Source: Candidatus Saccharimonadota bacterium (GTDB taxonomy: Bacteria > Patescibacteriota > Gracilibacteria > BD1-5 > UBA2023). From it: a stretch of 32,000 nt of DNA. The first letter of the stretch is position 1, and every line of letters begins with the position of its first letter. The position numbers were made by a program, and so were the translations under genes. The notes beneath the pieces are model-generated. The model was not told where the DNA came from. It was given only the letters and a program-made list of their open reading frames with translations, and searched no databases. The DNA is taken from assembly GCA_963706795.1 (NCBI GenBank), contig OY970170.1:1080001-1112000 (forward strand), written 5' to 3'. This document shows, piece after piece, positions 1 to 32,000 of this stretch.

Positions 1-428
1 ATGCCGATGGCCAGCATGCGATTACTGACATGCCAAAATTCCTCAAAGCCTTCGAAGTCGATCCACAGCTCGATATTGTCTTTGGCTCACGTTTTGTTAT
101 CAAAACCGACTCCAATGTCCCATTCTTCCGCCGCATCATCCTCTGGGGAGGGAAGTGGTTTACATGGGCTATTTCGGGGATTAAACTCACCGATGCACAT
201 AATGGGTACCGCATGCATACCATCGGTGCCATCCGCAAAATAATGCTCACCATGGACGGCATGGAATACGCATCCGAACTTATCGAACAAGTGCGTATCA
301 ATGAGCTAAAATTTACTGAGGTTCCAGTGAATATCTTGTATGACGAATATACCATGAAGAAGGGGCAAAGGTACGGTGGAGCAATGAGAATCGCAGCGAG
401 AATTATTTGGAAGAAATTTTTTGGATAG
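1..428 (+). CDS. Glycosyltransferase family 2, C-terminal part (5' end lies outside the window)
   Basis: Frame 3 is open from base 3. The translation ADGQHAITDMPKFLKAF...KLTDAHNGYRMH...GMEYASELIEQV resembles GT2 enzymes of the polyprenyl-phosphate sugar transferase type. It ends at TAG 426-428. Confidence 0.75.
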   Translation, partial: ADGQHAITDMPKFLKAFEVDPQLDIVFGSRFVIKTDSNVPFFRRIILWGGKWFTWAISGIKLTDAHNGYRMHTIGAIRKIMLTMDGMEYASELIEQVRINELKFTEVPVNILYDEYTMKKGQRYGGAMRIAARIIWKKFFG

Positions 429-429
429 C

Positions 430-2592
430 ATGAATCATTCTGCGATTCTTGTCACTGGTTGACTAGGATACATAGGCTCACACGCAGTCGTTGCACTTGA
501 AGAAGCTGGATTTAAAACGATTATCATAGATAGTCTCGTAAATTCATCTATCGCATCACTGAATGGCATAGAGGATATCTTGGGATATCGTCCCGTTTTT
601 TTTCGTGGTGACTTTGGCGATAAAGAACTCTTAACCAAGATATTCCACGACTACGATATTGAGCTCGTAGCACATTTTGCTGCACTAAAAATCCCAAAAG
701 AAAGCTGTTACGAACCCTTTCGTTATTACGAAAATAATGTCGTAAGCACTATTGAGCTTGTGCGCGTAATGGAACAGTTCTGAGTCAAAAAGATTTTGTT
801 TTCTAGTTCAGCAGCAGTATATCACCCAAATAACATCAGCCCCATCACTGAGGACTGAAGGACTGGCGCTGAGCATCCATATGCGGGAACTAAACTTGTT
901 TGCGAGCGGATACTCGAGGACTTAGCTCGTCATGCAGATTTTTCGGTGGTCGCACTGCGATACTTCAACCCTGTCTGATCTCATATTTCTGGTAAAATTT
1001 GAGAAACGCCATCAGGTACTCCGGCGAATCTTTTCCCATATGTGCTTGATGTGGCAGCAGGGCTACGAGACACTGTTTTTATTTATGGGGAAGACTACGA
1101 TACGAGAGATGGTACAGGAGTACGAGACTATATTGACGTCAATGATCTGGTTGATGCACATGTACTTGCCGCGAAGCGACTATGTACTGATTGGGGAAAT
1201 CCTGGATTTCAAACATTCAATCTTTGAACCGAAAAAGGCACATCTGTCCGTGAGCTTATCCATGCGGTCGAAAAAGAATCGGGCAAAACTATTCATACAA
1301 CCTCTGCGCCACGAAGACTAGGTGATCTAGGTGAAGTCTATGCGTCCTTTGATAAGGCAAAAAAGATGCTTGGCTGGTATCCCAAGCGAAGCTTGATTGA
1401 ATCAGTTGCAACTGGTTGGAACTTCCGGAAATTTCGCGAAACCAATTCACTTCTCCTCTCTGTGTCACAATCATATAAACTCCTTCATGTACTCCCGTAT
1501 TTTCCTCCACATAAAGGGGGGTTGGAGGCGGTGGCAGAAGAAATCTCGCGTAATCTTGTTGCGTATAGATTTGCTGAGGTCTGTAATCTAACTTTTGATG
1601 TAGGGCAGACTTCAGAAGATTATATGATTGATGGATATCGAGTAATTTCGATTCCTGCATTTGAAATGGTTCACAATTTCCCATTCCCTAAATTCTGGAC
1701 TCCTCGTTTTTGGAAAGCCCTAAAAAAGGCGAAGGATTTTAATCCTGATGTCATTCAGACACACACTCGTTTCTTTCTCTCGACTTTTTTGGGTGGAGTT
1801 CTCTCAAAGCTTTGGAAAAAACCTTGGGTCCACATTGAGCATGGAAGTGGATTTGTTGTACATTCCAGTGGATTTATTGCAAAGGCTGCATATTTCTATG
1901 ACCAAATTCTGGGGAAGTGGAGTATTAAAAATGCAGATCGCGTTGTTGCTATTAGTGATGCTTGTGCAAAATTTGTTCAAGAAAAACTTAAAGGTCGTGA
2001 GACCGATGTTATATACCGATGATTTGATCTTCAGGTATGAGAATGGTCACCATCTACTGGGGTAGTTCGCATTGCCTTTGTTGGCCGTCTCGTTTCACTC
2101 AAGGCTGTAGATAATTTATTGCGAGTTCTCGCAAAGATTGCAAAAACTCAGCAATTTCAGTGTATGATCGTGGGCGATGGTGACGAAAAATCAAAACTTG
2201 AAGCACTTACAAAAGAATTAAATCTCACTGATCGAGTTCAGTTCCTCGGCTCAAAACCACGTGAGTGGATTGCTACGGAACTTCTCCCAAACACGGATAT
2301 CTTTGTAAATCCAAGTCTTCAAGAAGGGCTCCCTACAACGGTTATTGAAGGCCTTGTTGCTGGATGTGTAGTAGTGGCAACAGATGTTGGTGGTACCACT
2401 GAAATTTCTTCTGAGGATGATCTCATAATTGCTCAACCAGGCGATGAAATGTCGCTCTTCGAGAAGCTCTCATTTGCTATACAATACCATGAAAAACTCC
2501 ATTGAATCTCCCGTAAGTCAGTCACTCAAAAATTTGATGCCCGAGAGAGTATGCGAAAGTTTCTGACAGTTTATAAATCAGTAGTGAAGTAG
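430..2592 (+). CDS. galE: UDP-glucose 4-epimerase (GalE) fused in frame to a GT4 glycosyltransferase domain (about 720 aa under table 25)
   Basis: Starts at ATG 430. GalE motifs are ILVTG[TGA]LGYIGSH (Rossmann GxxGxxG, TGA 460-462), PYAGTK (YxxxK) and RYFNPV[TGA]SHISGKI[TGA]ETPSG (TGA 976-978 and 1000-1002). There is no TAA or TAG before 2590-2592. From about 1462 the sequence is GT4-like (KLLHVLPYFPPHKGGLEAV ... NPSLQEGLPTTVIEGLVAGCVVVATDVGG). It carries nine in-frame TGAs. Confidence 0.8.
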
Positions 2593-2620
2593 ATATTGCT
2601 ACACGCAAATTTCTTTAGAA

Positions 2621-3709
2621 ATGAAAAAAATTCTTGTTTTTAATTTGACTCCTCGGCTTTGAATGCTGCACTACAGTAGTCAATTTTCAAACGAGCTTGC
2701 GAAGGGATCATTAGTTTGAGTAGTCATTGCTGATTACTACGACTGATTTTTATATGACAAAAGTATTCAGCTTTTTAAAATCAAGACAGATCCAAGTCCA
2801 ATTGCATTCATATTTAATACGTTAGCATTCTGGCGGCATTTTGTGCTCTTATGGCAAATTATTCGATTTAAACCGAATATAGTGCACTTTATAGATAATC
2901 ATCCTTGGTATGTAGTGTATTCAAGCGTACTAAAAGTACTTGGATTGAAGATTTTTGTTACACAACATGATCCCATTCCTCATTCTTGAGAGTCCTCAGG
3001 TCTTCATGCAAAAATTGCAATCTCTGTTAATGTTCATCTTGCAAAAATAGCAGATAGACTTGTACTTCATTCTCAAGAGTTTTGCCTTGCAGTATCAAAA
3101 AAATATCAAATTGCTACGGAAAAGATCGTTGTAGTTCCTCATGGTACATATGATTTTTTTACTCGATGGGAAGAAGGTTTACCAACCAAAAGAAATGCTA
3201 TTCTCTTCTTCTGAAGAATAGTTGAATATAAATGACTCGATGTACTACTTGAGTCTCTCGCCATTGTGACGGCAAGTATTCCGGATGTACAACTTTTTAT
3301 TGTTGGCTCTGGTGATATTTCAAAATATACTGCACTAATTGAGCGTTATAAACAAAATATCACTCTCGTACATAGGGAAATTTTGGACAATGAAGTGCAT
3401 ACATATTTTGAGACTTGCGAGCTCGTGGTCTTGCCGTATCTCGATGCAACAGCGTCAGGCATTATACCTATTGCATATGCTTTTGGTAAGCCAGTACTTG
3501 CTACAAATGTCTGAGCATTGAAACAGTTTGTTTTGCAAGATATAACTGGATGTCTTGTCGAACCATGAGATGCACAAAAACTCTGAAATCAAATTCAGAT
3601 GATGCTCAATCAGCCACAAAAGCTTCAAGCTCTTGGTATGAATGCTAGAAAATGGAGCGAGGAAAATTTAGGCTGGTGAGATATCGTTGCTAAGATATAC
3701 CCTAAATAA
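2621..3709 (+). CDS. Glycosyltransferase family 4 (group 1)
   Basis: Runs from ATG 2621 to TAA 3707-3709 with ten in-frame TGAs. Starts MKKILVFNLTPRLG. The C-terminal GT4 core is FFGRIVEYKGLDVLL...LVVLPYLDATASGIIPIAYAFGKPVLATNVGALKQFV. Confidence 0.8.
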
Positions 3710-3743: not shown

Positions 3744-4394
3744 ATGATGTACATTACTTATACCACGATGCTCATCAATCTCGTAAAGACTGAGGATGAG
3801 CTTTGGCAGCAAATAGGAAACTTGCGGACTGATGTACGCAAGGCATTAAAAAATGGCGTTGAAGTTTACTATACACCCTCCTCCGAAGACAGGCAACAGG
3901 CTTTGAATTTGTATCTAGAAATGATGAAAAAAAAATATTTACCTGTTGAAAAAAGCTTTAGCCTTGAAGGACAAAGAATGATTATTGCAAAGAGTTGAGA
4001 TACTGTTATTTCATATATTGCTTTTTCAGAGTCTTCATGAGTTGATCAATTAGGGAAGGCAAAAATTGCCGCATTTCAAACAATTGCAACAGATGATGCA
4101 TATAAAGGACTTTCACCGAACACACTTCTCTACTGGGAAGCAATTAAGTATCTTAAGGCTGAATGATTTGAATACCTAAATTTCAACGGTGTATCATATC
4201 AATATTGAAATGAATATTTGAATCATCTCGCCTTCTTTAAGAGAAAATGGAATGGATTAGAGATAGAATGTATTTCTCATAAGTCCTTCTTTAGCTACGT
4301 GTACTGGCGATTTTTTCGTAGGTATGCGTTTGTAAGAAAACTCATGTTCAAACTGCTTTTGCTTTTACTGCCAGGTAGATATCTCAATTATTAA
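3744..4394 (+). CDS. FemAB-like / BioF2-like GNAT acyltransferase-domain protein (tentative)
   Basis: Runs from ATG 3744 to TAA 4392-4394 with four in-frame TGAs. It has the pattern LRTDVRKALKNGVEV...YLNFNGVSYQYGNEYLNHLAFFKRKWNG, which is typical of FemAB-family or PF13480-type proteins. It is short (216 aa), so the call rests on family resemblance only. Confidence 0.45.
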
Positions 4395-4397: not shown

Positions 4398-5456
4398 TTG
4401 ATACATATGGCACCGGCACAAAAATTTGTCTCAATTATCTGGGGGTATCACAAGCAGATATTTACCTTTACCAGAGAACAAAACTACCATCTTCTCCCCG
4501 TAGAAGTAATGAGCAAGAAGGGATATGTATGTGAAATTTTTGCAATTGATTCTCAGGTGGAGATCGAGAAAGATCCTAATTTCCCAAAGAATACAAAGGT
4601 TATTTATTATTCAGGGTTCACTAAATATATAGGGTATCTTTGGCAAAATAGACAGTCGCTTGTTTATGTCAATTCACTCACTCTCAAGACATTATTTTCA
4701 TCGCTCATTCTGAGGCGCTCTATATTTATGGCGCATGATCAAGTCCTTCCTCTTGCGAGTAAAAGATTCAAAAGAATTGTTACACTTTTTTTCTATCGTT
4801 TTTTTTCAAAAATTAGGGTTATTAATAGCGCTGAATGAAGCTTGTTACAGGGTTATGGCATACCTTACTTCATTCTACCAATTCCTATCGCACAAGATTT
4901 TTATGAACCCCGCTTAGAAGAACGTAAAGATCTCGCATTCGTAGGGAATCTTACCTACGATAAAAATCCAGAATTCCTCATCCAGGCAATGGATATACTT
5001 AAAAAAGTATATCCTGAAGTGGTGTTGCATGTGTTTTGAGAAGATAGATATTTGAGCTCTACAGGTAAAAATTTTAAGCAACTTGTAAATGATTCTCAGC
5101 TATGAATGAATATCATTCTCCATGGTTTTCAGGCACAAACTGTAGTTCGAGATTTTTTGAAGCATACACTTATCTATGTTAACTCTTCACTTTCAGAAGG
5201 TCAGTGCTTGGCAGTTTTTGAAGCTGCACTTGCTGGTTGTGCTTTGTGTATACCTCCGATCCTATCTTTCCCAACTGTCTTTAGAGATCATGCGCTCTAT
5301 CATCAGGACGCTGCCCAACTGGCAGAAAATATATCTTTTTATTTAGAAAATAATCAACAGATGCGTTTTCATATCTGAGAGAACCAGAAAATGATTTTGG
5401 AAAGTTATAGTTTCGCTTACCTTGTATGAAAAATGGATAGTCTATTTGAGGTATAA
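4398..5456 (+). CDS. GT4-like glycosyltransferase
   Basis: The frame is open from TTG 4398 (first ATG at 4407) to TAA 5454-5456, joining three track ORFs across TGAs at 4836, 5037, 5103, 5376 and 5427. Motifs: DLAFVGNLTYDKNPEFLIQAM and YVNSSLSEGQCLAVFEAALAGCALCIP. Confidence 0.65.
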
Positions 5457-5473: not shown

Positions 5474-6586
5474 ATGAAAATCGCCGTTTTCGCTCAGAAT
5501 ATGTTTCCCCCTTGGATAGAGGGAATTAAAAATAACTCTCTTTTTTTGTGCTCTGAGCTTACAAAATACTTGGATCTTGTGGTTATAAGTCACCAAAAGC
5601 CAGGAGCACCAATAACTTCTCAACTCAATTGATTTCCTGTAATACATCTTTTAAAGGTCTATGAGAATAGATTATTGCAGTGTATCGAGTTTTTTCTTTG
5701 AGGTCTAAGATGTTTGTTTTTTCTCATACAAGAAAAAATCTCCATCGTATCTTTTCAGTACCTTGAAATCTCGTTCATACTTCCAATGTTCTTTGTTGCG
5801 ATTTTTAGACCAAAAACTTCTTTTATTCTCACACTGTATTCATCTGATGAGCTCAGACATTGGTATAAAAGATGGACACTTTTCTTATTGAAATCAAAAT
5901 TCAAAAAGATTATCATTATTTCTGAATATCTCAGAGATGAGGTTCGAAATTTTGGTTTTTTAGACGAAGATATTGTCTATATTCCGCTTTCTTTTGATAA
6001 AGAAAGATACCTCAGAGCATCTGACTTTGAAAAGAGAGACAAAAATCTCTTACTTTTTTCCGCTGGACCAATAGAAGAGGCTGGATCATTTTTGTTGGTG
6101 GATGTTGCAAAGAAAATGCCAGAATTTCGCTTCATTTTTGCTATGCGTCAATTTAACAAACGCAGCGAGATGGAAATGGCTCTCCTTGAAGAATATATTG
6201 ATGCTCACTGAGTTAAAAATATCGAGATCCTTCGGAATATTGATAACATGGAAGAGTTGCTTTCAAAGGTTTGAGCGCTAGTATTACCACTTCAGACAAT
6301 CGACATAAAAATGCTTATCCCAGTGGCTCTCCTTGAAGCCATGGCACGCGGAACAATTTGTTTTGTATCTAATCTCCCTAATTTACAGGCACTAGTTACA
6401 GATTGACAGGATGCTGTAATCTTTGATCGTACAAATGCCGATGATCTGGTGAGTAAAATTCGTAAATATTCAAATAAGCTTTCAATTTCGGTATGAGCGT
6501 ATGAATTTGCACAACAATTTCCCTCATACAAAGAAATTGCCGAAGAGTATGTTCATCTCATTCAAAAAACAGCATGATCTATCTAA
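5474..6586 (+). CDS. GT4-like glycosyltransferase
   Basis: Runs from ATG 5474 to TAA 6584-6586 with seven in-frame TGAs. Starts MKIAVFAQNMFPPWIEGIKNNS. The C-terminal part, LLLFSAGPIEEAG...LVLPLQTIDIKMLIPVALLEAMARGTICFVSNLPNLQALV, fits the GT-B fold. Confidence 0.65.
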
Positions 6587-7587
6587 ATGTCCATGGACTA
6601 CGCGTCCTCGTTCGAGTTAACTGCATGTCATTATCTAATGCAATTAGCTCTTACTATAGAATTTTTTTAGTGGATCCATTTTCAACATTTGACATGGAAG
6701 TGGATATGCGGCGCTATTGATATTTTTGATCGCCTGCTTCACTTTCATCCGATGACGATGACGTTGTTATATGAGATTATATAAAGATAAATCCGAAAAA
6801 GCATACGTATGCTTTTTCGAATATTGAGATCAGTGGAGTGATTGAATTTCAAGATAATTTACCTATTCGAGTTACTGGTAATCTTAAGCCACACAAAGTT
6901 CGTCACTGGGTTAATATTCTTCTTCAGGGGTTTTCGCGCATAGATAAATACTATAATCGCTTTGCAATTAAAACTCTTCTCCATGATCCTATTTTTATAG
7001 AGTTAGAGAAACGCTTCCAGATGGTGATTCTTCATTCAACAGCAGTGACTGATGGACAGAGCACTTATCTTTTTACAGGACTCGGCGGCAGTGGAAAGTC
7101 TACTATGGCTGCGACTTTTCAAAAGGCAGGGTATATTATACTTTCTGACAATTACGCTCTCGTAAAAGGTAATACCTTATATCCATTCCCCGAACTTCCT
7201 CGAATTACTAAGGAAACTTCAGATTTGCTTGGTATAAAGAAAGGAGAGAAGGCAGATGGTATAAAGACATATCTGGTGAATAATCTGGATAATATTAAAA
7301 AGGAATACCCAATCACTGCAATCTTCCAATGTTCCTATGGTGCTCACTTTAAAATAGAAGAGTTTAAAGATAGTGCTTTAGTTTTTGAAATTCTCTTTTC
7401 TATCAATAATTACACGAAGGAATTTCCAGAGTATTGAAATCTTGGAATGCTCAGCCTTCTTGGAAAGTATAATACTTGAGCGAAACGCATTGAATCCCTG
7501 CTTGCCGTAGCATCACTTAATAGAACATTTTTGCTTGAGAACACAGCCGATTTATCTAGAGTTGTCGAGATAATAAAAAATGTATAA
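6574..7587 (+). CDS. HPr kinase-like (HprK-related) P-loop protein
   Basis: Starts at ATG 6574, overlapping the upstream gene by 13 nt, and ends at TAA 7585-7587. The core LHSTAVTDGQSTYLFTGLGGSGKSTMAATFQKAGYIILSDNYALV matches the HprK C-terminal domain pattern (H-x-x-A-V, then G-x-S-G-x-GKS-T, then G-x-x-L-x-S-D). It carries five in-frame TGAs. Confidence 0.55.
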
Positions 7588-8566
7588 ATTTTCTCATTTT
7601 CCTACGCCAGTGCCTCTGGACGAATACATGCACCAGCAGGCTGCGTGTATCTGTATGCTCAAGGAACTTTTTGGGTCTAAATTGGTCTCTATCTATATGA
7701 TTGGAGAAATGGGGCTTGAGGGGGTGTCAGATATTGATTTACTTGTAGTATACCGTGGTGAAGATCATAAAAAAGTAATCAGTCAAAACATTGGCTCATT
7801 GCCTCTAATTGATATGCCATTGCTTATATTGGAAACTGATGTGCATAATCTAGCACTCTATACTCATCACGTAGACTTTGAGTATCTGTATGGCAAAAAA
7901 CTAGATACTATGGAGCAAGAGCTCCCTAGGGAATATCTGCTCATCTATACATGGAAAATACTTTTCATGTCATTACTTCGGAATTTTTATCCTGTTATTT
8001 TTTCAAAAAGCATCCCCGTTAAACAGTTGCTGTCTCATATTTATGACATACGTTATCCTATATTATTTTTAGGGAGAATTTCATCATCGAATATGAGCAA
8101 ATACATGGATTTTCTTGATCGCTATAGTGTATTTCGAAAGAATTGGTACTCTAATCCGGATACTTCAGTTCTAGTGGCATTTTTACAGGAAGCAATAGAT
8201 CTTTCGTGGGAATTGATCTATCTTTTTACTGACAGTATGCCCTCAGTGTGAGTTTCTATAAGTCATGTGCTGTGAGGTAGGTATCCAACTATTTTTCTTG
8301 AACTACCAAAAGAAAAATATCGTGCACTTACCGAAAGGTACTATGCTACTATTTCTAAGAGAGATAGATTCTTGGTTATGCCTCGACAGTTTGACAGTGA
8401 ACATTGGCCAATAGAATATCAGGCTATACTGCATAATCTTCTTAAGGTAAATCCAGGTTTTCTGAGAACAAGCTTCAGTAGTATTACTCTGAGACTTGCC
8501 TTAAAGATAAAAAAAGTAGTGGATTTTATTAAAATTAGCTGGTTTATGCTGTATGAAAAAAATTAA
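7580..8566 (+). CDS. Nucleotidyltransferase-fold (Pol-beta superfamily) protein
   Basis: Starts at ATG 7580, overlapping the upstream gene by 8 nt, and ends at TAA 8564-8566. The NTase signature is LVSIYMIGEMGLEGVSDIDLLVVY (G-x-x-G then SD-I-D-L-L-V), followed by a helical C-terminal region. Two in-frame TGAs, at 8249 and 8273. Confidence 0.5.
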
Positions 8567-9605
8567 GTACCTGATGAATGGTTTTCAGTTTCAGTATCTG
8601 TTATTTTCAAAATATTTATCAGACCGATTTGATTTTGCATTTAAAGTGCCGGAATCAGGAAAGTTTACTCCAGGTTACTCTTATATCCCACGCAATCTCC
8701 TGTTATTAAAAAATCTCTATCGTAGGCGAGAAGTGCAGCAGTACGATATAATACAGATTAATAACACAGAAAATTTTCTTAACTTTAAGCCAAATCCACA
8801 CCAGGTATCCATTGCTGAATCGCACGGATTTGATTTTGGAGTGAACTATTCCAGATATTTGGAAGATGAAAAAAGTCCTATCAAATACGCTCTTGGCTGG
8901 ATTATTGATAAGCTTTTGGGATCATGGATTCGAAAAAAAATTCAGCAATTTGATCTCTATTACTGCTCAACTCCAGATATGCAGGAGCCTCTTTCTCGCC
9001 TTGTTCGAGAGGATGTGAAATGGCTTCCAAATCCAGTGGACACTGCTACGTTTACTCCCGAATGAGAAGTTATAAAACTCATGGGTGAGCCTGCATTTTT
9101 TTTCCCAACGCGATTACACGGTGATAAAAAACCGGAAATTGCCATTGATATATTTAAAAATCAAATCAAGCCACTCTATCCAAATGCTACTCTCCATTTA
9201 CTAGAGTGGTGATATGAAGTTCCTAAATATAAAAAACTTTTAAATGATCCAAATACCTATTTTTGGCATGGATTTATGGATAAGAGTACCTTGGCTTCAA
9301 AAATTAGATGAAGTGATTTTTGTTTCGGAGACTTTAGTATTGGCGGGTTAAGTCTCATGCCAATGCAAATTATGGCTTGTAAAAAACCAATTATCACGTA
9401 TGACATACACGAAATTATTCATGTACCACTTACTGGAATATCTGAATATACTATGAGTATCCTATGAGATGAAAAACTTCGTAATGCTCATGTGTCTCGA
9501 AATTATGAGTATGTACAATCAGTGCATTCAGAAGAAGCAGTCATAAAACAACATCTATCCTATCTTGAGCCTTTTGTATTTAAAAAGCTCGGTATAAAAT
9601 TATAA
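8553..9605 (+). CDS. Putative glycosyltransferase (GT-B-like C-terminal half)
   Basis: Starts at ATG 8553, overlapping the upstream gene by 14 nt, and ends at TAA 9603-9605. The stretch FFFPTRLHGDKKPEIAIDIF...GDFSIGGLSLMPMQIMACKKPIITYD resembles the nucleotide-sugar-binding half of GT1/GT4 enzymes. Four in-frame TGAs. Confidence 0.5.
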
Positions 9606-9627: not shown

Positions 9628-10236
9628 ATGAAAAAAGTTTTAGCAATTGGGCCACATCCAGATGATATTGAATTAGGGTGTTTCGGAACTATGTGTAAAT
9701 ATGCAGAAAAGGGCTATGAAGTACACTTTCTTGTTCTTTGTAGGGGTGAAGCGTGAACTGCAAATGGCGATCGCACGCAGGAAGCTAAAAATGCCGCCTC
9801 GCTTCTTAAATGTAAGCTCTATGTAGAAAATCTCAAAGATCGCTATATTTCTGAATGACCAGAAACAATAGCCACTATTGAAAAATATATTAAGGAGATC
9901 AATCCTGATACTGTTTTTATTCCGTCAGGAAATGATACGCATCAGGATCACCGAGCAGTCCATTTTGCAGCACTTGTAGCTACGCGTCTAACGAAGGAAA
10001 TCTTTGTGTACCAGTCTCCAAGTACGACAATTAATTTTAAGCCAAATTATTACGTCGATATTACGCCATACATGGACACTAAAATGGAGGCAGTGAAGAT
10101 TCATTCTACACAAGGCTGAAAGGTGTATATGGCTGATCGAGCTATTCAAGGGCTTGCCGAGTATCGTGCATTTGATATCTTTTTGAATGATCGATATGCT
10201 GAGGCATTCGAGCTTCTTAAGTTTGTAGAACTGTAA
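9628..10236 (+). CDS. PIG-L / LmbE family N-acetylglucosaminyl deacetylase
   Basis: Runs from ATG 9628 to TAA 10234-10236. Starts MKKVLAIGPHPDDIELGCFGTM (the PHPDD-E-x-G motif) and has a downstream HQDH metal-binding motif. Three in-frame TGAs. Confidence 0.85.
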
Positions 10237-12180: not shown

Positions 12181-12213
12181 AAATCTCGAAAGCAACTGCG
12201 GCAACATAGTTTT

Positions 12214-21440: not shown

Positions 21441-21971
21441 ATGAAGTTCATTACGAAAATTCTCCCTGTTTTGCTCTTGCCTGTGGTTCTGACTTCTTGT
21501 TTTTGGAATAGTGATACGAACAAGAACCAAAATACCAATAACGGTAACACGACGGTTCAGCCGGATGCGAGTAATACTCCAGAGGCAATCAAAGAACGCG
21601 ATCGTATTAATAGTCTCAATACACTCTCCAAAGACAATCTTGCAACACAGATCGAAGAAAAAGACGGCAAGAAAACTCTCAAAGATCGCCGTCTGTTCGT
21701 TAATTACATGCGAGCACAAAAGGTAAATAGCTCTAAAGACCTCATCGCAAAACTCACGGATATCGAATGATTTGCAAAAGACAACGGAGTAGAGCTCACA
21801 GATGCTGATATCTACGTAATGATTGCAGGATCTCAAATCGAAAATAATTCATGGAATGTCTGTGGTAACTTCGCCACTACCAAGCAGACGCTCGATAGCA
21901 AAAATAAATACTACGGATACATCTCGAAACTCTGTGTTCCACCAGAAGCCCCAAAACCAGCCAAAAAATAA
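21441..21971 (+). CDS. Putative lipoprotein (176 aa)
   Basis: MKFITKILPVLLLPVVLTSC carries the lipobox L-T-S-C, followed by a low-complexity N/T/Q linker. The frame continues through TGA 21768 to TAA 21969-21971. Confidence 0.65.
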
Positions 21972-21995: not shown

Positions 21996-24900
21996 ATGAA
22001 AACAAATATAAAAAAACTCCTCATCGCCATCATCCTCTGAGCATTAAGTTCGCTCTTTGGATGATTTGTCGTTTCTGCTACTGCGGTTATCCCGATGTCT
22101 TCGGGCGTACGATATCAGACATATACAGTCGAATGGTGTTCGCCACATGCAAACGATGCCTCAATGGCTGGATGAGTATGGAGTGCGCCATGTAAGACTG
22201 GTTACTTCACCAATATCGGCGGCGTTGCCAAGATTGTCTACAACGGTCAGGATTTTGTAAGTGGGAATATACGAGCTCAGAACGCTCTTGCTGCATCGCT
22301 TACGCGAACGGCTAATCTCTCGAACGCATCGCCTCCAATTATTGATTTTTTTGCGTCGGTCACAAACGGTGCCTTTTCGATGGAATGAGAGGGTGTGCTC
22401 AAAATTAAGGTCTATATGACAGACTACGCAGAAAATGCGAGCTTTTATACGCTGACATACAAAATCGACAAGACTGCACCGCAACTCACCTTTGCAGGTA
22501 TTACCGAAAATACTGACTACACATTTTATGGAGGTCGTGTAAATACGAGTTTTACGGTTGATAAAAATGACTCTTCTGCCGCTCTCTCGAGTGGTGATGG
22601 ATATAGCAATCCTTCTATTGGAAGCTATGCTGGCAATACTGCCACGCCTCGCACGGGTCATCTTCGCAATAATCTCCATGCGTTTTATTTCCAGAATAAT
22701 CTCTCTGGTGATGGGGCGAATAGTCCATTTGCGGCAAATCTCAATTATAGTGACAATTATAATGGGTTCCTTACTCAGACGGCGACGATGAGCGATGGAA
22801 CGAATACGTCTCTGGTTGCAGGTGAAAAGAAATTCCAATTACTTACAGCGGATTCGCTCCCGACAGGCCTTGGTGATGTTCCAGCTGGTCCCTCTATGGC
22901 GGCTTCGACAGCCAATCTCATTGATAACAATGTAAATGGTCAGAAGGACTACCGTATTCGTCTCTATGATGATACATTTGATCAGAATGGAAATTCTGGT
23001 AATTACGCTGAAACTGCGTTTTATGCAGTGCGTGATAATACTCCACCAAATATGGGTGGAAACGGTCTTGCTCCTGATGTACAGACAGCGATTGATACTA
23101 CGCTCAAATTTCCTGATGCCGAAACAGTCTTTGATAAGACGATTGGTTCTGGATTTTCGAGATTCTTCGCTGCGAATAATGCAGCGTCGATTCTCTATTC
23201 AGTGAGTGACAAAGGAATTACTGGCAATGGAAGTATAGCGGGTACGGGATGTTCGGATTATGGACTCTGTAATGCGGGTGTAGATCCTGCAACTATGAAG
23301 ATTAATATCGAAAGTGCAGCAACTCCTGGAACTCAAGAGACATTTTATCAGCCGACTGACCGGTTTGAAAATATCGGCCAGAAGACTAAGGACTTCTCAC
23401 GTTCTGATAATGGAGCACTCGCTTCAAATGGCGGATATCGCTATTACCCAGCACAGTTTTTGAGTAATAATCTCACTGAGCTCTGCGATACAGTAGGGAA
23501 TTGTATCGCTCCGGATCTCAAATTTAGAGTTGTAGCCAATGCACTCGATGGAACTGCTTCACACCTCAGTATTGCTGCTAATAATGGTGAGACCAAGATT
23601 ATGGCGAATGGAAGCGACGCATATCGTCTCACATATGGACTTCGAGATAAATATGGAAATAAGGTTGTCCCAGTGCAGTCCGTCGAAAATGCGAGCGCTG
23701 TAATCAAAAATGTGACGACCAATGCGGTTTTTGCCAACGGTCTCAGTGCTGATCAGCGAACCAATACTCCTACTGGCGCAAAGCTTGTGAGCGTAGCTGA
23801 CAAAGAAACCGACAATACGGTATTCCAGGGGTCAAATATCAATACGACCGGCAATATCACGATGCAAGAAAAATTCACCAATCCAAATGGAAACTTTGGA
23901 ATTTCTCTTGCTTCGAAGGTTCCGTCGAATGACTTCTATCCATATCTTTCGGACGATTCGACACTCAAGGTAGCTTTGATTTGAGGAACTGCAGATGGAA
24001 ATGCTCCAGCTGGTATTACCTATCCACGTTCGAGTGCTGATCGCGTAGGGTACTTCACAAATCTCAGCTATACAGGTGGTAATACCAATCCACTCGTTGT
24101 AGCAAATAAAGGTGGACTGGGTGAGACTGGTGGATTTAGCAATATCACGGTAGATACTTCGCTTTATGGGCAATTTACCCTCAGCAATGCGTCAAATGTG
24201 TCATTCCTCGATATGGCGAATCGAAAGATAAATTTTGAATACGCTTCACCGCTCCTCTACGGTCTCGTTGGATTTAAGACGCTGATTGATGGACAATACA
24301 TGCAGCATTTCAAAAAGCTCTATACGATTGGTTCATCCGCAACGAATTACAATGTCTATGAGCGAAATCTTGTTGCGTACAATACCGACAAAGATGAGCA
24401 GCCAGGAGTTCTCAATTTTGATGTACGTGCTGCGGGATCGACAGATAACGCCCTCATTAATGAAGGTGCTGCCTATACGAACAACAATGTTATTGCATTC
24501 TTCCCAGGAGTTCAGACGGTGAAGCCGTTTGATATTGCGGGTGCATATGGCAGTGGATTCTCTGCAGAAGTACAAATGTCGGCCATCCCAGGTCATCCTG
24601 CATATGATAACTCAAAGCTTCGTACAGCCTTTGTAGCGGGACTTACTTATAACATCGGATCGGATCTCATTCTCTTGCCATCTATTGCACGTAATATCCA
24701 GGATGGATCAGGAAATGCACTCGATCAATTTGCGATGTCACGTAATTACTACTCAAACTCATATCGTATCGGAAGCACGCCAACAACCCTTAAGGCAAGT
24801 CTTATCACGGATATTGCAGTTACGGGTCTTACAAATCGATATAACTCGCTCACGACAGATGTTGGTGGTTCGAAGGCAAATTCAAATGTTTCGACCGAAC

Positions 24901-25847
24901 TCTCTCGTCCAGAACTCACTGCGAATATCAAAAAGAATGTCGCGATCCAAAGTGCAGGATTTGAGTCAGTAAATTCTCCGCTTACAGGTGTGAAAAAATG
25001 GTGTGCAGGATCTGAGATTGGGCAATCATTCATTGATGCTCCACCAAGTGAATGTACTCAGGTAATTAATGGCGAAACCATCTCATTTATTGATGGAAAT
25101 ACTTCACTCTTCTGTCCTTCTGGTGAATGTCACGTGAGTTCAAAGCGCAGTATCATCGTCCAGAACGGATATCTCCAGCTCAAATCTAATATCACTTCGC
25201 TCGACTTTGCTGGCGCTCAGACTAACGGTCAGCTCTTCCTTGCAGTTATGAATATTGGCGGACTCGCGAATCTCGCAATTGACGGTAATACTCCAGATAT
25301 TACGAATGCCGACAAGAAGGGATGGATGCTCATTGATCCAAGTATCACCAATCTTGACGCATTCCTTGTATCTCAGGGGCCAGCCGTGTCGTTTGATGGT
25401 ACAAAATTCTTTACGAAGTCGCTCACAACTGAGAATCAACTCCGCAACCAGCTCCATATCATGGGAAGTCTTCTGACGCTCAATAATATTGGAGGATCAC
25501 GCCAGGTAACTCCGGAATGTCCATATATCGTCAGCAACTGTAATGCTGAAACTGCTCAGATGTTTGACCTCGTCTATATGCGTCGTTTCGCACTGCAATC
25601 TAAAACAGTGTTTACGGGAGATCCGCTCGATATGAGCACGATGGTTCCGTATCATCCAGCAGGATTCGATGTAGCTAAGAAATCAGGTGGAACCGTTGGT
25701 GCTGAGCCAGCATCTGCAGCAAGTTGTACTTCAAATCCTACTGATCTGCGATGTATTAAGGATAACGACTACCGAGCTTATCCAATGCTCATCGAACGCG
25801 ATACACGATGGAATCAAACACCAAGTATATTTTTCCTTGTGAATTAG
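21996..25847 (+). CDS. Giant exported surface protein (about 1283 aa), adhesin-like, with an Ig-like (Big_1-type) segment
   Basis: ATG 21996 gives the N-terminal hydrophobic segment MKTNIKKLLIAIIL[TGA]ALSSLFG[TGA]FVVSATA. One frame joins track ORFs 22395-23984 and 24198-25847 through TGA 23982. The protein is Asn/Thr/Ser/Gly-rich. The segment IMANGSDAYRLTYGLRDKYGNKVVP (about 23562-23760) resembles invasin/intimin Big_1 domains. Stops at TAG 25845-25847. Confidence 0.7.
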
Positions 25848-25895: not shown

Positions 25896-28505
25896 ATGAA
25901 AAATCTCATACGACTCTCGATCTCATTTCTCGCTTTAGGGATGTTTGTTTCGTCAGTAAATGCTGGACTGATTCCAGGTACGATCTGAAAGGGGTCTTTT
26001 ACAGATGCTGCCTCTTGTACTGCGTCGAGCACATCGTATTCACCAGCAAATGGGAAATACTGGTGTACTAAAAATAACAGCTGTCGTGCTGCTGCCTGTG
26101 GACCTGGAATACCTGATCCTGAAGACAAGACCTATGTCGATTTCTCCGCTCAGGGGTATGGTGATATAAGTGCTCTTGCGCAGTGTAATCAACTCATTTT
26201 TGATCACTTTACGTATCAGGCGTATGCTTGTAGTAATGGTGGAGGATGTTCACTTGATGGTTTCCCGCCAGATGCAGAACATCCATCTGCTAATCCAGCA
26301 CGAGTTGGAGCTTGTGTGCCACATAATGCTTGGGTTGCAGCAAAGGGCTGAGTATGTGAAGATCCTTCATGTGGATGTGCTGAAAATACTTCTGGTACGA
26401 CAGGAACATTTAATCTGACTGACTACTCAGATGCTACCAAAAACCCTGCATTTTCGAGTGCTGGAGTAACTCGTAAGCTCACGGTGGATCTCTCACGAAC
26501 ATGTTCGACAAGCGCACGAAAAACTCAATCGATCACAGAGCCGAGCTATTCAACTTGGACATGTCCTGGGAATAATTGTTCTCCGCTCACTCAGATTATC
26601 CGTACGGGTGGTCAGGATGCGGTATGTAACGGGTATTCTGGAACTGACAACCTCATTGCGAGTTTTGACCAGATTGGAAATATGACCTCTTCCAGCCCAA
26701 CGCATAATGATGGAAACTGTACAGTAGAAGGTCGATATGCAACACCCGATGATAATGGACCAGATATTACGGTAGCGAATGATACGGTGTTTTCATCTGA
26801 CGCTGATAAGTGGTGTAGTCTCACTAAATGGTATACCGGATCAGGAAGTATTCCTTCTGGCTGCGCTTGGTACGCAGCTCGTAATAGTCATGCAGTTGCC
26901 ACTAATCCTGTAGATCTCATCGAAAATCTCGCGATTACTATTGGGGCAGATCCTTCGAGTATTGGAGCGGTGAAGGTCGAACTTGGAAAATGTGAGTATA
27001 CATACACCCTCCCACGTGATAATTCCATTCTCAAGAGCACGACAAATGCTCAGGGAACAAAGGACAGCGGAGGATTTACGATTGGATATAATGCAGGATT
27101 TACATACGGAGGAGCGTCATATCCAAGCCTTCGAACTGCTCTTGGGGCGACTGGTGCAAATGGGCTCAATATCTGTCTCGACGAATGAAAAAACTTCCTC
27201 CGCGTAACCGCTGAAGATAATGCTCGCTCGGATAATGACGGTGTTACACTCGCAGCCAACAAGACTGTCTATATCTCTGGACTCTGAAACTTTAATAATA
27301 CCACACCGAACGTCACAAACGCTGCGACGATCAATATTGATAACTCAGCTCCTGGGCTCTCGATTACGGGTGATGCGAGCAAAGTATTTGAGTCAAACAC
27401 AAGTGTTATCAGTTTCATTGGATGATCTGCTACCATTGATCAGCATTGGAAGAATTACACTGTGAATGGAGGACTCTTTTCAGGAGATCCATACCGTGGA
27501 CTCGGAGCACCAACGTGTGGTAATTTTAATGGTGCGTGATTCCAATGTGATAGTGGGCCGGTAGTGTCACTCGATACGACTTCGACTGGAGCATCTACGC
27601 CGACCGCTTCCGCAAGTCTTACTGGTAGCTTGTTCGTACTCTTTGATGAAGGCACACCTCAAGCCTCAGGCTCCTCGGCGGCAAGACTCTGGGATACGAG
27701 TGGAGATTCGCATGGACTCCTCACATATGAGGCGAGCTGTAGTGATCCGTCGACATATAAAACATTTGCATACGCAGCGGGTGCAGCCTATGGCCCGATT
27801 ACAGGTCTACCAAGTACATATAGTAATACTAAATTTCCGATCACAGCATCCGAATCAAGCTGTTCAGCGCCACCTAGTAGTGGCGCTTGTTGATCTGACA
27901 ATAATGGGACATTGTCATCTACACCTACAAATCTCTGTAGTACTGGTACTGCGAGCAATATCAGTGGCTCTTGACCCTGGAACTGGTCATGTCTAGGAAG
28001 TAACGGCTGACCAAATGCTTCCTGCTACGCAAATAAAACTCCACCTACTCCTTCATCTTCGACACCTGATCCTACCCCAATACCAACTCCCACTCCTACC
28101 CCTTCTGATCCAACTCCCACTCCGATGCCAGTTGTCGTAAATGGCGCGTGTGGTTCTGATGATGGCAAGACACTCGCAAGCACGCCTACAAATCTTTGTA
28201 ATACTGGAACATCCAATTATCTCAGTGGACTCGGTCCATGGAGCTGGCAGTGTACTGGTCAAAATGGCGGTACAAATGCGAGTTGTTATGCAAGTTCGAC
28301 AACACAGTCATCTTCGGGTGGTGGCGAATGTATTCGTTATGTTCAAACGGCCTGCTGGGTTGATGGGCGCTATTTTGATTCTGACCCAACAGGAAATCAT
28401 AACGGATATGTTATTCAGTGTGGCTTTCCAACTGGCTGAGCTGCACCATATCCAGGATGGGTCTATGAGGGCAATGGTACAATCTGTGCTGAATACACAC
28501 CTTAG
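25896..28505 (+). CDS. Cysteine-rich secreted protein (about 869 aa) with two C-terminal 50-aa Cys modules and a Pro/Thr linker
   Basis: ATG 25896 gives the signal peptide MKNLIRLSISFLALGMFVSSVNA. One frame links 25896, 26484, 27564 and 28125 through ten TGAs. Cysteines occur throughout. Stops at TAG 28503-28505. Confidence 0.7.
27882..28031 (+). repeat. Cys-module repeat copy 1 (50 codons) inside the 25896-28505 gene
   Basis: GAC[TGA]SDNNGTLSSTPTNLCSTGTASNISGS[TGA]PWNWSCLGSNG[TGA]PNASCYA aligns without gaps to copy 2, which lies 261 nt downstream. Confidence 0.85.
28032..28142 (+). repeat. Low-complexity Pro/Thr/Ser linker coding region (CCN/ACN-rich)
   Basis: It translates as NKTPPTPSSSTPDPTPIPTPTPTPSDPTPTPMPVVVN. 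It also produces the spurious antisense GVGVG ORF at 28025-28216. Confidence 0.8.
28143..28292 (+). repeat. Cys-module repeat copy 2 (50 codons)
   Basis: The sequence is GACGSDDGKTLASTPTNLCNTGTSNYLSGLGPWSWQCTGQNGGTNASCYA. GGT codons at 28152, 28233 and 28269 correspond to TGA at 27891, 27972 and 28008 in copy 1. Confidence 0.85.
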
Positions 28506-28596: not shown

Positions 28597-29769
28597 ATGA
28601 TTTCATCACTTGCTAGCTTTCTCCTCCGTGGTCTCTCTATTTATCGATGGAGTAATTTCCCACGAGTAGAAAAACCAACCGCACTCGACCATGGAGCTTT
28701 CTCACTTCATGTATCTTTTTTAGTGGCTGATATGGTGGAAGAGAAGAGGGGAGTGAAGGATGTATTTAATCGTCTCGATCTCTTTAAGCGATCGCTCTTC
28801 TCGGTATTTTTTAGCTGTGCGTATTCGGATGTGAGTTCGGATGTAAAACAGAGTATCAAAAAAATGCGACCCGATCTCTATGCGACCCTCTGCAAAAAAA
28901 TGCATAGCTCGGTTCTCTCCTGGAATCTCCCAAAAAATGTCCATGAAGAATTCACTGAATTTGCCAATTATCTCGAATCCAAACACGAGAGAAGCCAAGA
29001 GGCAGATCTCTATTCCTACGGTAAACTCGTCTCAGCCTATTACGAAGCGCTCTTTAATGCGCGTGTCTATCCTGAGGTCTATGGAGGTCCGCTCGAGGCT
29101 ATTCTTCTCAGGCTCGCTGAGCCGAGATTTGCAGAGTTTCGTACAGTGCTCGATGTCACAAAAGATACGCCATCTGTCCGATTTTTGCTCTCTGTTCGCA
29201 GGCTTGAGTCAGCATTTCGCTGGAATCGACTCCGTCGCTCCTATCCTATATCGGTGATGTCGCATCTTTTCATCGTTGCGACGCTCTCATATCTCCTTTT
29301 CCGTATCGAAGGCAAATCTGATGCTGATGTAACGGAGGCCATCCTGAGGTCACTCTATCATGACGTACCAGAGGCTATCACCGGTGATATTGTAACGCCT
29401 ACCAAAAAGGCAGCTCCATGACTCGATGAGCTCATTGCTGAAATCGAAGCTGACTTCGTCCTCGAAAGCATGCTCATCCATCTTGAAGGACACAGTTTTG
29501 AGCCAGAGTATGCTCGTAGACTTCTCTCACCATGGGGCGATGAACTCGGTAAACTGGTTAAGCAGGCCGATCTTCTCTGTGCTTTCCTCGAGGCGCGCAT
29601 CGAAGAAATCGACAACCCTACTGGCGAACAATTTAAACGCAGTCGAGAATATGTCTCTGCCAAGATCAAGCAAGATGGCTATCGAAGCGCAAATCTTCTC
29701 CTCGCTGACTTTGATAACGGACTTCGAATATATCTCCCAGACTCGATGATGGGTCTCGGACCTGCATAA
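28597..29769 (+). CDS. HD-domain phosphohydrolase (YfbR-like 5'-nucleotidase family) with an extended N-terminus
   Basis: RWNRLRRSYPISVMSHLFIVA...LYHDVPEAITGDIVTPTKK gives the H...HD...D pattern. The frame continues through TGA 29419-29421 to TAA 29767-29769. ATG 28597 is preferred over ATG 28531, which sits in the terminator loop. Confidence 0.75.
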
Positions 29770-29771: not shown

Positions 29772-29809
29772 CCCTCCTTCGCTCTTACGAGTTTCGGAGG
29801 GCTTTTTTT
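29772..29809. terminator. Candidate bidirectional terminator between convergent genes
   Basis: CCCTCC (29772-29777) pairs with GGAGGG (29796-29801), with an inner CTC/GAG pairing, followed by T7 (29803-29809). On the minus strand the same hairpin is followed by TTTTAT. Confidence 0.6.
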
Positions 29810-30260
29810 AAAGTGAGAGTCTCTCAGCAAGTCGATCAGCAAAGGTGAGTTCTTTGTTTTCGGTTTCTGGTAGATAGTTTAGGAGAAATGTTCGCACTTC
29901 GCTCGAATTTACATCAGGTGTGAATGGGATTTGCACCAACTTGAGCCCCTTCTTACGTAGACTGATCTGGAGAAATTTTGGAATTTGTCCGTCGAATATG
30001 AGTCAAAAATTCTCAATCTGACCGTAGTCATAAAACATATCACCAATACCAATTCCATTCTCATTGACGATAGCTTCTGCGGTATCTGGTGCGTTGTTTT
30101 CGATCAGCAAATATACTCCTGCAAGTATAACAACTACGACCGAGAGTGCGTAGATTTGTGTCAAAAATCCCCAAATGGCGAGTGAGACAGTAGCGATACC
30201 TGCGACGAGATACCAGCCTGCTCAGTGGTCGTGTTTTGTGGCGATGATCCAGTTGAACAT
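29808..30260 (-). CDS. Small membrane protein (150 aa; two TM helices and a soluble C-terminal domain)
   Basis: ATG at 30260 overlaps the upstream stop as TAATG. The sequence is MFNWIIATKHDH[TGA]AGWYLVAGIATVSLAIWGFLTQIYALSVVVVILAGVYLLI, followed by a soluble tail. Stops at TAA 29808-29810. Two in-frame TGAs. I recognise no family. Confidence 0.55.
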
Positions 30261-30601
30261 TAGAGATTGTCGATTACAAAACGGATAATAAACCATCCAG
30301 AAACCGAGAGCACAAAGCCGGTGATACCTGCAGTGATGATCTTTTTACCGGTTTCTTTGTCATTAGAGAGTGAGCCAAGACCCATGCGGACTGCGCCGTA
30401 AATGATCATGACCACTGCTACTGTACCAGAGAGGCCGAGTATATAGTTGGTAATATTGATGATGATATTGGGAATATCATTAAATCAGACCTCTCCATTG
30501 CGGAGCTTGTCATCAGAGACACCAATCCAATTGCTTGCGGCGAAGGCCTGAGATACCCCAAGGTTCGTGATCGCAAAGAGTGAGAAAAGAAAACGCTTCA
30601 T
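30260..30601 (-). CDS. TrbC/VirB2-like type IV secretion pilin-like protein (113 aa)
   Basis: The signal peptide is MKRFLFSLFAITNLGVSQAFA. Two hydrophobic helices (IINITNYILGLSGTVAVVMIIYGAV and IITAGITGFVLSVSGWFIIRFVI) are separated by a short polar loop (RMGLGSLSNDKETGKK). This architecture matches VirB2/TrbC and the T4SS-pilin family common in CPR genomes. Confidence 0.5.
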
Positions 30602-30607
30602 GGAGGC

Positions 30608-30635
30608 ATTATAGAGACATTACGTACTTTCCCAA
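30608..30635 (-). promoter_or_regulatory. Candidate promoter (TTGGGA, 16-nt spacer, TATAAT) predicting a leaderless pilin mRNA
   Basis: On the minus strand TTGGGA is at 30635-30630 and TATAAT at 30613-30608. Only 6 nt (GCCTCC) separate the -10 box from ATG 30601. Confidence 0.45.
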
Positions 30636-30641
30636 GTCTTC

Positions 30642-30669
30642 TTGGAAAAAGTTGTGAGTTGTCTATAAT
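30642..30669 (+). promoter_or_regulatory. Candidate promoter for pheT (TTGGAA, 16-nt spacer, TATAAT)
   Basis: TTGGAA is at 30642-30647 and TATAAT at 30664-30669, 23 nt upstream of ATG 30693. The leader has no Shine-Dalgarno-like motif. Confidence 0.45.
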
Positions 30670-30692
30670 ACGCCAAAACTTCACTACATTTT

Positions 30693-32000
30693 ATGAAACT
30701 TCCGCTTTCATGGATCGGCGTTTTTGCGTCGGTTGAAAATCCTCTTGCCACGCATGGCGCTAAAGAACTCGCGCATATCTACTCGACCCATACTTCCGAA
30801 ATCGAAGGCTATGAAGCATTTGGCGACTACGATAAAGTGGTTGTTGGTCGCGTTATTTCGACTGAGCGACATCCCGAATCCACCAAACTCTGGATCACAA
30901 AAGTGGATCTTGGAAAGCATGGTGAAGAGACGATTTTGACCGGAGCTCAAAATATTCCTGATGCAAAATACGTGCCAGTTGCAATGGTGGGCGCAGCACT
31001 TTCACCAGATTTTGTTATTACAGAGCGCAAAATGGCTGGCATGATCAGCCGTGGAATGATCTGTGGTGCCGACGAAATCGGACTCTCAAAGCAGGTGTCT
31101 ACAGGTATCATGATCCTCGAAGAATTCTTTGAAGAATCTATTCTTGCCAAGCAGCTTGGTGAAAATCTCTTTGATCTCGAAGTTGCGATCCCTGATATCG
31201 CAGGTGGGTCAAAGATGATCAAAATCAGCGGTACCGGATTTGAAATCGACAACAAGAGCGTGACTAACCGCCCCGATCTCTTTGGAATCCTGGGTCATGC
31301 ACGCGAATTTGCAACTCTCTTTGATCTCGAATTCACGGCACCAAAATACCCACTTGAAGCCCTTCCTGCTGGTAATCTGCCAACCGAAGTACTCTCTAAA
31401 AATGTGCTCTCGTACCATCTTATGAAGATTGAAGGGGTTACGCCGAAGCCTTCACCGCTTGGAATTTCTCTCATGCTTGAGCAGAGTGGACATCAGACTC
31501 GACTTGATCTTGTGGATATCACGAACTACCTCATGACCGAGCTTGGTCAGCCAATGCACGTATTTGATGCGGATAAGGTCGATGGTCACATCATTGTTCG
31601 TCAGGCCCAAAAAGGCGAGACACTCGTAGCACTCGACGGTAAAACCTATACATTCGAATCATCTGATCTTGTGATCGCAGATCAAAAAAAGGTTCTTGCG
31701 ATTGCCGGTGTTATGGGCGGGATGGATTCTGGAGTTACAGAATCTACACAAAATATCTATTTTGAATCCGCAGTCTTCGATCCTACTGCGATTCGTCTCA
31801 CAGCACAGAGACTCGCTATTCGTACGGATGCCTCAACTCGCTACGAAAAATCGCTCGATCCAATGATGAGCAAACAGGCACTCGCTCGAGCAATTCAGTT
31901 GATGACATTTTTGGGTCAAAAAAGTACGATTTCTGGCACTTCCTACTATCTCGACGAAACCCGAGTAAAAAAGATTGAGCTTACAGTAGCCGTAGAGTTC
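30693..32000 (+). CDS. pheT: Phenylalanine--tRNA ligase beta subunit (3' end outside the window)
   Basis: Starts MKLPLSWIGVFASV. It has a tRNA-binding domain (VVVGRVISTERHPESTKLWITKVDLG...ISRGMICGADEIG) and a B3_4 domain (NRPDLFGILGHAREFA...LVDITNYLMTELGQPMHVFDADK). The frame stays open to base 32000 (436 codons). It is absent from the ORF track because it has no stop in the window. No in-frame TGA. Confidence 0.95.
   Translation, partial: MKLPLSWIGVFASVENPLATHGAKELAHIYSTHTSEIEGYEAFGDYDKVVVGRVISTERHPESTKLWITKVDLGKHGEETILTGAQNIPDAKYVPVAMVGAALSPDFVITERKMAGMISRGMICGADEIGLSKQVSTGIMILEEFFEESILAKQLGENLFDLEVAIPDIAGGSKMIKISGTGFEIDNKSVTNRPDLFGILGHAREFATLFDLEFTAPKYPLEALPAGNLPTEVLSKNVLSYHLMKIEGVTPKPSPLGISLMLEQSGHQTRLDLVDITNYLMTELGQPMHVFDADKVDGHIIVRQAQKGETLVALDGKTYTFESSDLVIADQKKVLAIAGVMGGMDSGVTESTQNIYFESAVFDPTAIRLTAQRLAIRTDASTRYEKSLDPMMSKQALARAIQLMTFLGQKSTISGTSYYLDETRVKKIELTVAVEF

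Follow-up and report, generated by a model that had tools for sequence, protein, structure and literature searches.

In the 32,000-base window analyzed here (the whole stretch of DNA under study, with a G+C content of 41.7% and part of a 1,267,896-bp contig), the codon UGA interrupts most genes when they are read with the standard code. We conclude with high confidence that this window is chromosomal DNA of an uncultured Patescibacteria, probably of the Gracilibacteria/Absconditabacteria group, that uses translation table 25, with UGA as an ordinary glycine codon, UAA and UAG as the only stop codons, and UGG as tryptophan. The comparisons below show the assignments UGA to glycine, UAA and UAG to stop, UGG to tryptophan, and CGA and CGG to arginine. 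The best named matches are from Candidatus Gracilibacteria for PheT (48–51% amino acid identity) and ManC (50–53%) and from Candidatus Absconditabacteria for GlmS (52%), with all other phyla at about 40% in GlmS and Peregrinibacteria next at 39%. An earlier note on this DNA had linked its code to these two groups, and the matches fit that link.

Genes were called by reading frames from one TAA or TAG to the next, with TGA as a sense codon. When TGA no longer counts as a stop, open frames of 100 amino acids (aa) or more hold 27,129 residues in place of 11,120, compared with 17,088 when TAA is dropped instead and 15,289 when TAG is dropped. The resulting gene map is tidy and nearly gap-free, with 26 genes covering 96.6% of the window. 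In-frame TGA codons total 101 and are spread over 21 of the 26 genes, and no TAA or TAG occurs in frame. Of the 25 genes that end inside the window, 19 end in TAA and 6 in TAG, none in TGA. Five genes or gene parts carry no TGA, namely the C-terminal part of a gene at 3..428, the DUF333 protein, the ABC-F ATPase, the GIY-YIG protein, and the N-terminal 436 aa of PheT. Alignments with Pfam and PDB entries continue across the TGA codons with no frameshift (GlmS, GalE, ManC, WbqC, PIG-L, and seven GT4 domains). The C-termini agree with the ends of homologues, with residues 1–605 of the 606-aa GlmS aligning with residues 1–608 (of 609) of E. coli GlmS and ManC aligning up to the last of the 116 positions of its profile. 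The GalE-GT4 protein has 720 aa here and 702–724 aa in its homologues. The earlier note had claimed that genes are interrupted by TGA alone, never by TAA, TAG, or a frameshift, and that all end in TAA or TAG, both of which were borne out. Its hand counts of roughly 90 TGAs and roughly 30 genes were inexact.

The residue read at TGA was assessed in the following genes.
430..2592, plus strand: GalE (UDP-glucose 4-epimerase) fused to a GT4 glycosyltransferase, 720 aa; Pfam Epimerase/GDP_Man_Dehyd and Glyco_transf_4/Glycos_transf_1 in one frame; 9 TGA; ends in TAG.
12214..13584, minus strand: ManC (mannose-1-phosphate guanylyltransferase / mannose-6-phosphate isomerase); Pfam and PDB 2x5s; 5 TGA and 2 CGG; ends in TAA.
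13586..15406, minus strand: GlmS (glutamine-fructose-6-phosphate aminotransferase), 606 aa; PDB 4amv (2e-129), end-to-end; 9 TGA, including 15380-15382; ends in TAA.
15410..16519, minus strand: GT4 glycosyltransferase; Pfam; 2 TGA, including 15602-15604 (FGKG-x-ALE); ends in TAA.
25896..28505, plus strand: large secreted Cys-rich protein, 869 aa, with no Pfam match; 10 TGA; ends in TAG; internal repeat 27882-28031 / 28143-28292.

For GlmS, GalE, and ManC, each TGA was masked as X, column profiles were built from homologues outside the lineage, and log-odds were summed in the style of Codetta. The outgroup sets comprised 79 GlmS sequences translated from loci of diverse phyla, 100 ManC sequences, mostly archaeal, and, for the GalE domain, the 102 non-fusion matches of the GalE-GT4 search. 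When the window proteins were all compared by tblastn with the regions flanking 80 GlmS loci, only GalE, PIG-L, and ManC had matches, 1–4 each, which was not enough for use here. The TGA codons fall in glycine-majority columns in 13 of 20 cases, similar to the GGN codons of the same genes (67 of 92; Fisher P = 0.59) and different from their non-glycine codons (20 of 1275; P = 9e-18). The log-odds for TGA are +24.0 for glycine, -22.2 for alanine, -44.2 for cysteine, and -45.7 for tryptophan. TGG itself scores +34.7 for tryptophan, and 0 of 12 TGG codons stand in glycine-majority columns. In a GlmS locus from Absconditabacteria, which itself has 11 TGAs, 9 of these stand in glycine columns.

At the level of single sites, the five TGAs singled out in the earlier note are all in frame and in the contexts it quoted (460-462, 976-978, and 1000-1002 on the plus strand; 15380-15382 and 15602-15604 on the minus strand). 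The GalE alignment covers profile positions 1-329 of 332 across the TGAs, which include 460-462 in the Rossmann GxGxxG motif and 976-978 and 1000-1002 in the NPVGxHxSGxxGE motif. Glycine accounts for 90/91, 91/92, 92/92, and 87/89 residues in four of the GalE TGA columns and for 53/87 in a fifth (counted among the five commonest residues), and one column is variable. In GlmS, six of the nine TGAs lie in columns that are 75–98% glycine among 80 homologues. The ManC columns hold glycine in 92/100 and 88/100 sequences, serine in 64 with glycine in 27, and other residues in the remaining two. The claim that the TGAs sit on invariant glycines therefore stands for the motif glycines of GalE and ManC but does not extend to every site, as shown by the 13 of 20 above and by GlmS position 9, where 68 of 80 homologues have glycine. 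The TGA in the FGKGx motif, the first of two in gene order, aligns with the GG motif of the GT4 paralogues in the window; this seven-paralogue alignment is very divergent and weakly informative.

Comparison with a close relative points to the same residue. The DNA of GCA_049315825.1 (contig JBMOJK010000004.1, labelled 'Patescibacteria group bacterium') was compared with the window codon by codon, the encoded proteins sharing 96% identity in ABC-F, 81% in GlmS, and 72% in ManC. At sites with TGA in either genome, the partner codon is GGN in 25 cases, TGA in 3, another codon or a gap in 11, and TGG in none. Of the nine TGAs in GlmS, eight correspond to GGN in the relative and one to TGA; the three that lie in variable outgroup columns are GGN there. 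The FGKGx TGA is GGT in the relative, and in the other direction its ABC-F gene has a TGA where the window gene has GGG. The window also holds a comparison within a single gene. The Cys-rich protein contains a 50-aa Cys-rich repeat whose copies are identical at 32 of 50 positions and separated by a Pro/Thr-rich linker, and the TGAs at 27891, 27972, and 28008 in the first copy each pair with GGT in the second.

The arginine codons were scored in the same way. CGA makes up 101 of 9591 codons (about 105 per 10,000), with log-odds of +24.1 for arginine and -43.1 for tryptophan (n=16). CGG occurs 13 times, with log-odds of +4.4 for arginine and -11.4 for tryptophan, and both CGG columns of ManC are arginine in 98 of the aligned sequences. 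The alignment of CGA and CGG to arginine indicates a lineage without the extra arginine-to-tryptophan changes of the Absconditabacteria and some Gracilibacteria. Taken with the outgroup columns of GalE, GlmS, and ManC, the tabulation of which the earlier note had proposed, the TGA and GGN exchanges with the relative, the internal repeat, and the TGG codons in tryptophan columns are independent tests that all agree with its reading of UGA as glycine under table 25, and with its statement that TGG still encodes tryptophan and the code is not of the Mycoplasma type.

Several observations weigh against this assignment. Seven of the 20 testable TGAs stand in non-glycine columns, at variable positions as is also the case for GGN codons, and one ManC TGA column is proline in 80 of the 91 counted sequences, mostly from Thermococcales. 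These sites match the behaviour of GGN codons in the alignments but leave room for slight ambiguity. No tRNA gene, including tRNA-Gly(UCA), was found in the window, the identical Logan contigs, the JBMOJK010000004.1 contig of the relative, or the Absconditabacteria GlmS locus. A Rfam scan of the window and of the identical Logan contig at 30005-32000 and beyond gave 0 matches at the gathering threshold. The release factor 2 gene prfB is absent among the window genes, 32 kb being too short to judge a genome-wide loss. The taxonomic placement relies on best matches at about 50% identity. We therefore infer the decoding machinery from published data on the clade. A dedicated tRNA-Gly with anticodon UCA would read UGA, release factor 2 would have been lost, and release factor 1 alone would terminate translation at UAA and UAG. 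The glycine identity elements expected of such a UCA tRNA are G1:C72, C2:G71, G3:C70, and U73.

The use of UGA is uneven along the window, as given by its share of glycine codons.
430-12207, glycan genes: 27%, G+C content 36%.
12214-17677: 16.5%, G+C content 44%.
17729-32000: 5%, G+C content 45%.

TGA is absent from the 95 glycine codons of the ABC-F, PheT, and DUF333 genes combined (P = 3.5e-8 when compared with the 16.5% of neighbours with the same G+C content). This contrast is an argument for a dual meaning of UGA, in which the codon is mostly glycine but is decoded inefficiently or ambiguously (by near-cognate tRNA-Trp or residual release) and is avoided in essential, highly expressed genes. 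Shulgina and Eddy (2021; PMC8629427) also note that U34 wobble could give an ambiguous reading of UGA and UGG in these clades. The TGA share, however, follows gene G+C content (Spearman rho = -0.80), and mutational bias explains much of the unevenness because UGA is the most AT-rich glycine codon. GlmS moreover carries nine TGAs at catalytically conserved glycines, and the ABC-F gene of the relative has gained a TGA. We regard such a dual meaning as rather unlikely here.

As an ordinary glycine codon, UGA follows local composition and gene class in its use. The contrast in UGA share at equal G+C content hints at selection or at different histories of the genes. The saturation of the glycan island with UGA suggests that the island has long evolved in code-25 genomes. 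Synteny between the relative and the window extends from the gene for the large secreted protein across ABC-F, GT4, GlmS, and ManC, and beyond ManC the relative carries other glycan genes (GT9, methyltransferase, GT2, and DUF2304). This different gene set indicates that the Wzx, WbqC, PIG-L, and GT4 island of the window is strain-variable. A broader proposal, which we offer tentatively as one possibility, is that the window represents a divergent code-25 lineage of comparatively high G+C content, whose PheT and GlmS are about 50% identical to those of named relatives and which keeps CGA and CGG as arginine. Its UGA use would depend strongly on gene class, from 0 of 95 glycine codons in ABC-F, PheT, and DUF333 to 27–50% in the strain-variable island of low G+C content. 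This would imply a decoding cost of UGA that is selected against and an island exchanged only among code-25 genomes. If true, the altered code would be a barrier that shapes horizontal transfer of the variable surface-glycan island.

Reading UGA as tryptophan (table 4, the code of Mycoplasmatales and some insect endosymbionts, also reported for a few Patescibacteriota in a 2026 preprint) restores the open frames equally well, and public collections do contain such translations. One Logan call is the exact GlmS sequence of the window with tryptophan at all nine TGAs. The 18 homologues of the GalE-GT4 fusion in the lineage have Rossmann motifs of the 'ITGWLGYIWSH' type, with tryptophan at the glycines, and are code-4 translations. 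The preprint in question, on gTranslate (10.64898/2026.05.24.727570), reports the first UGA-to-Trp cases in Patescibacteriota, and it describes a coding-density heuristic able to choose only between tables 11 and 4, with which these code-4 translations agree. Heuristics that compare only these two tables yield proteins of full length with an error at each UGA, where tryptophan replaces glycine. The tryptophan score of -45.7 against +24.0 for glycine, the presence of TGG itself in tryptophan columns, and the 0 exchanges between TGA and TGG against 25 between TGA and GGN all speak against table 4, and tryptophan in the GxGxxG and NPVG motifs is structurally implausible. We consider a tryptophan reading highly improbable.

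Local recoding, by selenocysteine insertion or programmed readthrough in place of a genome-wide reassignment, has the general properties of the codon in its favour. UGA is the selenocysteine codon and the leakiest stop codon in bacteria. Local recoding would have to act at 101 sites in 21 unrelated genes, and these sites correspond to glycine, not to cysteine or selenocysteine (cysteine log-odds of -44.2). No selenocysteine insertion sequence (SECIS)-like or other Rfam element was found in the scan described above, and no gene ends in TGA. There is very little chance that local recoding accounts for the window. The idea that the TGAs are true premature stops, in pseudogenes of a decaying genome or through assembly errors, has a negligible probability: the standard code does interrupt 21 of 26 genes and public records list only fragments, but a single one of the three stop codons is responsible (101 TGA, 0 TAA or TAG), frameshifts are absent, the TGAs lie on glycine columns with synonymous turnover between TGA and GGN while the proteins stay 72–96% identical, and the window agrees at 100% identity with two independent assemblies.

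The main practical consequence of the code is correct annotation. Two Logan contigs of run ERR12037365 match window positions 17688-30003 and 30005-32000 at 100% identity, and the public gene calls on this identical DNA use code 11. In these calls the 1283-aa protein appears as pieces of 522 and 544 aa, the HD protein as pieces of 337 and 99 aa, PheT as pieces of 441 and 365 aa, and RelA/SpoT as four pieces. On the identical contig, PheT has a TGA six codons beyond the window end, where the public call halts at 441 aa. GlmS on the 1,267,896-bp NCBI/ENA contig is called as fragments of 107 and 87 aa, and the NCBI proteins of GCA_049315825.1 are likewise cut at TGA, giving a ManC of 319 aa and an ABC-F of 413 aa. 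The expectation of the earlier note that a standard-code annotation would fragment the genes is thus realized in public data. With table 11, 21 of the 26 genes are broken up into fragments that average 80 codons, compared with 396 for whole genes. The commonly used table 4 fallback gives full-length proteins but places tryptophan at 101 glycine positions, some of them in catalytic and cofactor-binding motifs. Both types of error are present in public collections for this exact sequence and for the close relative. If the DNA were re-annotated with table 25, a complete surface-glycan cluster would be recovered, as would GlmS, ManC, PheT, and RelA/SpoT.

In the Logan assembly of ERR12037365, a contig break falls exactly on window position 30004, within the gene for the small membrane protein (29808-30296). 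The 10 kb past the window contain the rest of PheT, a RelA/SpoT gene that has 4 TGAs, and other genes that code-11 calling breaks up.

The remaining genes of the window are as follows.
3..428, plus strand: C-terminal part of a gene that begins before the window, with no Pfam match; 78% identical to an open reading frame in GCA_049315825.1; 0 TGA; ends in TAG.
2621..3709, plus strand: GT4 glycosyltransferase; Pfam; 10 TGA, 45% of its glycine codons; ends in TAA.
3744..4394, plus strand: FemAB/GNAT-like acyltransferase; Pfam Acetyltransf_6 and FemAB, both weak; 4 TGA; ends in TAA.
4407..5456, plus strand: GT4 glycosyltransferase; Pfam; 5 TGA; ends in TAA.
5474..6586, plus strand: GT4 glycosyltransferase; Pfam; 7 TGA, 50% of its glycine codons; ends in TAA.
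6574..7587, plus strand: hypothetical protein with a P-loop-like GLGGSGKST motif and no Pfam match; 5 TGA; ends in TAA.
7580..8566, plus strand: hypothetical protein with no Pfam match; 2 TGA; ends in TAA.
8553..9605, plus strand: weak GT4-like glycosyltransferase; Pfam; 4 TGA; ends in TAA.
9628..10236, plus strand: PIG-L family de-N-acetylase; Pfam PF02585 (3e-26); 3 TGA; ends in TAA.
10238..10909, plus strand: WbqC-like protein; Pfam PF08889 (4.6e-69), profile positions 1-215 of 218 across the TGAs; 4 TGA; ends in TAA.
10906..12207, minus strand: polysaccharide biosynthesis (Wzx-type flippase) membrane protein; Pfam Polysacc_synt; 8 TGA; ends in TAG.
16577..17677, plus strand: GT4 glycosyltransferase; Pfam; 4 TGA; ends in TAA.
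17729..18571, minus strand: secreted DUF333/PdaC/DUF3298 protein; Pfam; 0 TGA in 22 glycine codons.
18764..20218, plus strand: ABC-F type ATPase; Pfam; 0 TGA in 38 glycine codons.
20222..20497, plus strand: GIY-YIG domain protein; Pfam; 0 TGA.
20579..21415, plus strand: secreted protein, family unassigned; 1 TGA, inside the signal peptide and also TGA in GCA_049315825.1; ends in TAG.
21441..21971, plus strand: putative lipoprotein; 1 TGA; ends in TAA.
21996..25847, plus strand: large secreted protein of 1283 aa, of no known family; 5 TGA; ends in TAG.
28597..29769, plus strand: YfbR-like HD-domain 5'-deoxynucleotidase, start codon uncertain; Pfam PF12917; 1 TGA; ends in TAA.
29808..30296, minus strand: small membrane protein; 2 TGA; ends in TAA.
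30693..32000, plus strand: PheT (phenylalanyl-tRNA synthetase beta subunit), N-terminal 436 aa; Pfam tRNA_bind and B3_4; 0 TGA inside the window.

A 'GT2-like' label for the gene part at 3..428 is unsupported. GalE and GT4 form one continuous 720-aa open reading frame with no stop of any kind between the two domains. This fusion is common to the 18 homologues of 702–724 aa (about 715 aa), most of which carry the code-4 'W' artefacts, suggesting that it is lineage-specific. Outside its own lineage, ManC is nearest to enzymes of Thermococcales and Methanococcus (about 46–50% identity, compared with 50–53% to named Gracilibacteria), and this closeness to archaeal enzymes in sequence hints at a putative old inter-domain transfer. 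Four adjacent genes for secreted proteins or lipoproteins (20579-21415, 21441-21971, 21996-25847, and 25896-28505) have no Pfam family and may encode cell-surface proteins of an episymbiont. The frame of the HD protein is open for about 450 bases upstream of the chosen start (28141-28597), overlapping the end of 25896-28505, and the public code-11 call for this protein begins at window position 28408. A phage or plasmid origin of the window was ruled out by the cellular gene content (GlmS, PheT, RelA/SpoT, and ABC-F) and by the location on a 1.27 Mb contig.

The reassignment itself is already known. The code was described in 2013, PMC8629427 citing Campbell et al. (2013) and Rinke et al. (2013) for table 25, and the reassignment of UGA to glycine in Absconditabacteria and Gracilibacteria, the expected tRNA-Gly(UCA), and the absence of release factor 2 have been covered by Shulgina and Eddy (2021; PMC8629427) and by the gTranslate preprint (10.64898/2026.05.24.727570). 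The window is one more instance, in a lineage where it is expected, and holds little surprise for specialists, its value lying in annotation. As in the table-25 code of SR1/Absconditabacteria and Gracilibacteria, UGA stands at glycine positions, translation stops at UAA and UAG alone, and UGG is tryptophan. The code itself shows no difference from table 25. The 1.27 Mb contig, from a small genome of Patescibacteria, has the usual size for such bacteria, and the best named homologues carry the clade names. The G+C content, 42% overall and 44–46% outside the glycan island, lies toward the upper part of the published range of 0.21-0.53. Table 4 resembles the window in that UGA is not a stop and open reading frames have the same lengths, but differs in the residue, which is glycine here and tryptophan there. 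The extended code of Absconditabacteria shares the UGA-to-glycine background with the window. In that code CGA and CGG have also changed from arginine to tryptophan, as CGG has in some Gracilibacteria (Shulgina and Eddy, 2021), and CGA occurs at fewer than 37 per 10,000 codons in Absconditabacteria genomes with the extended code (PMC8629427), compared with about 105 per 10,000 here.

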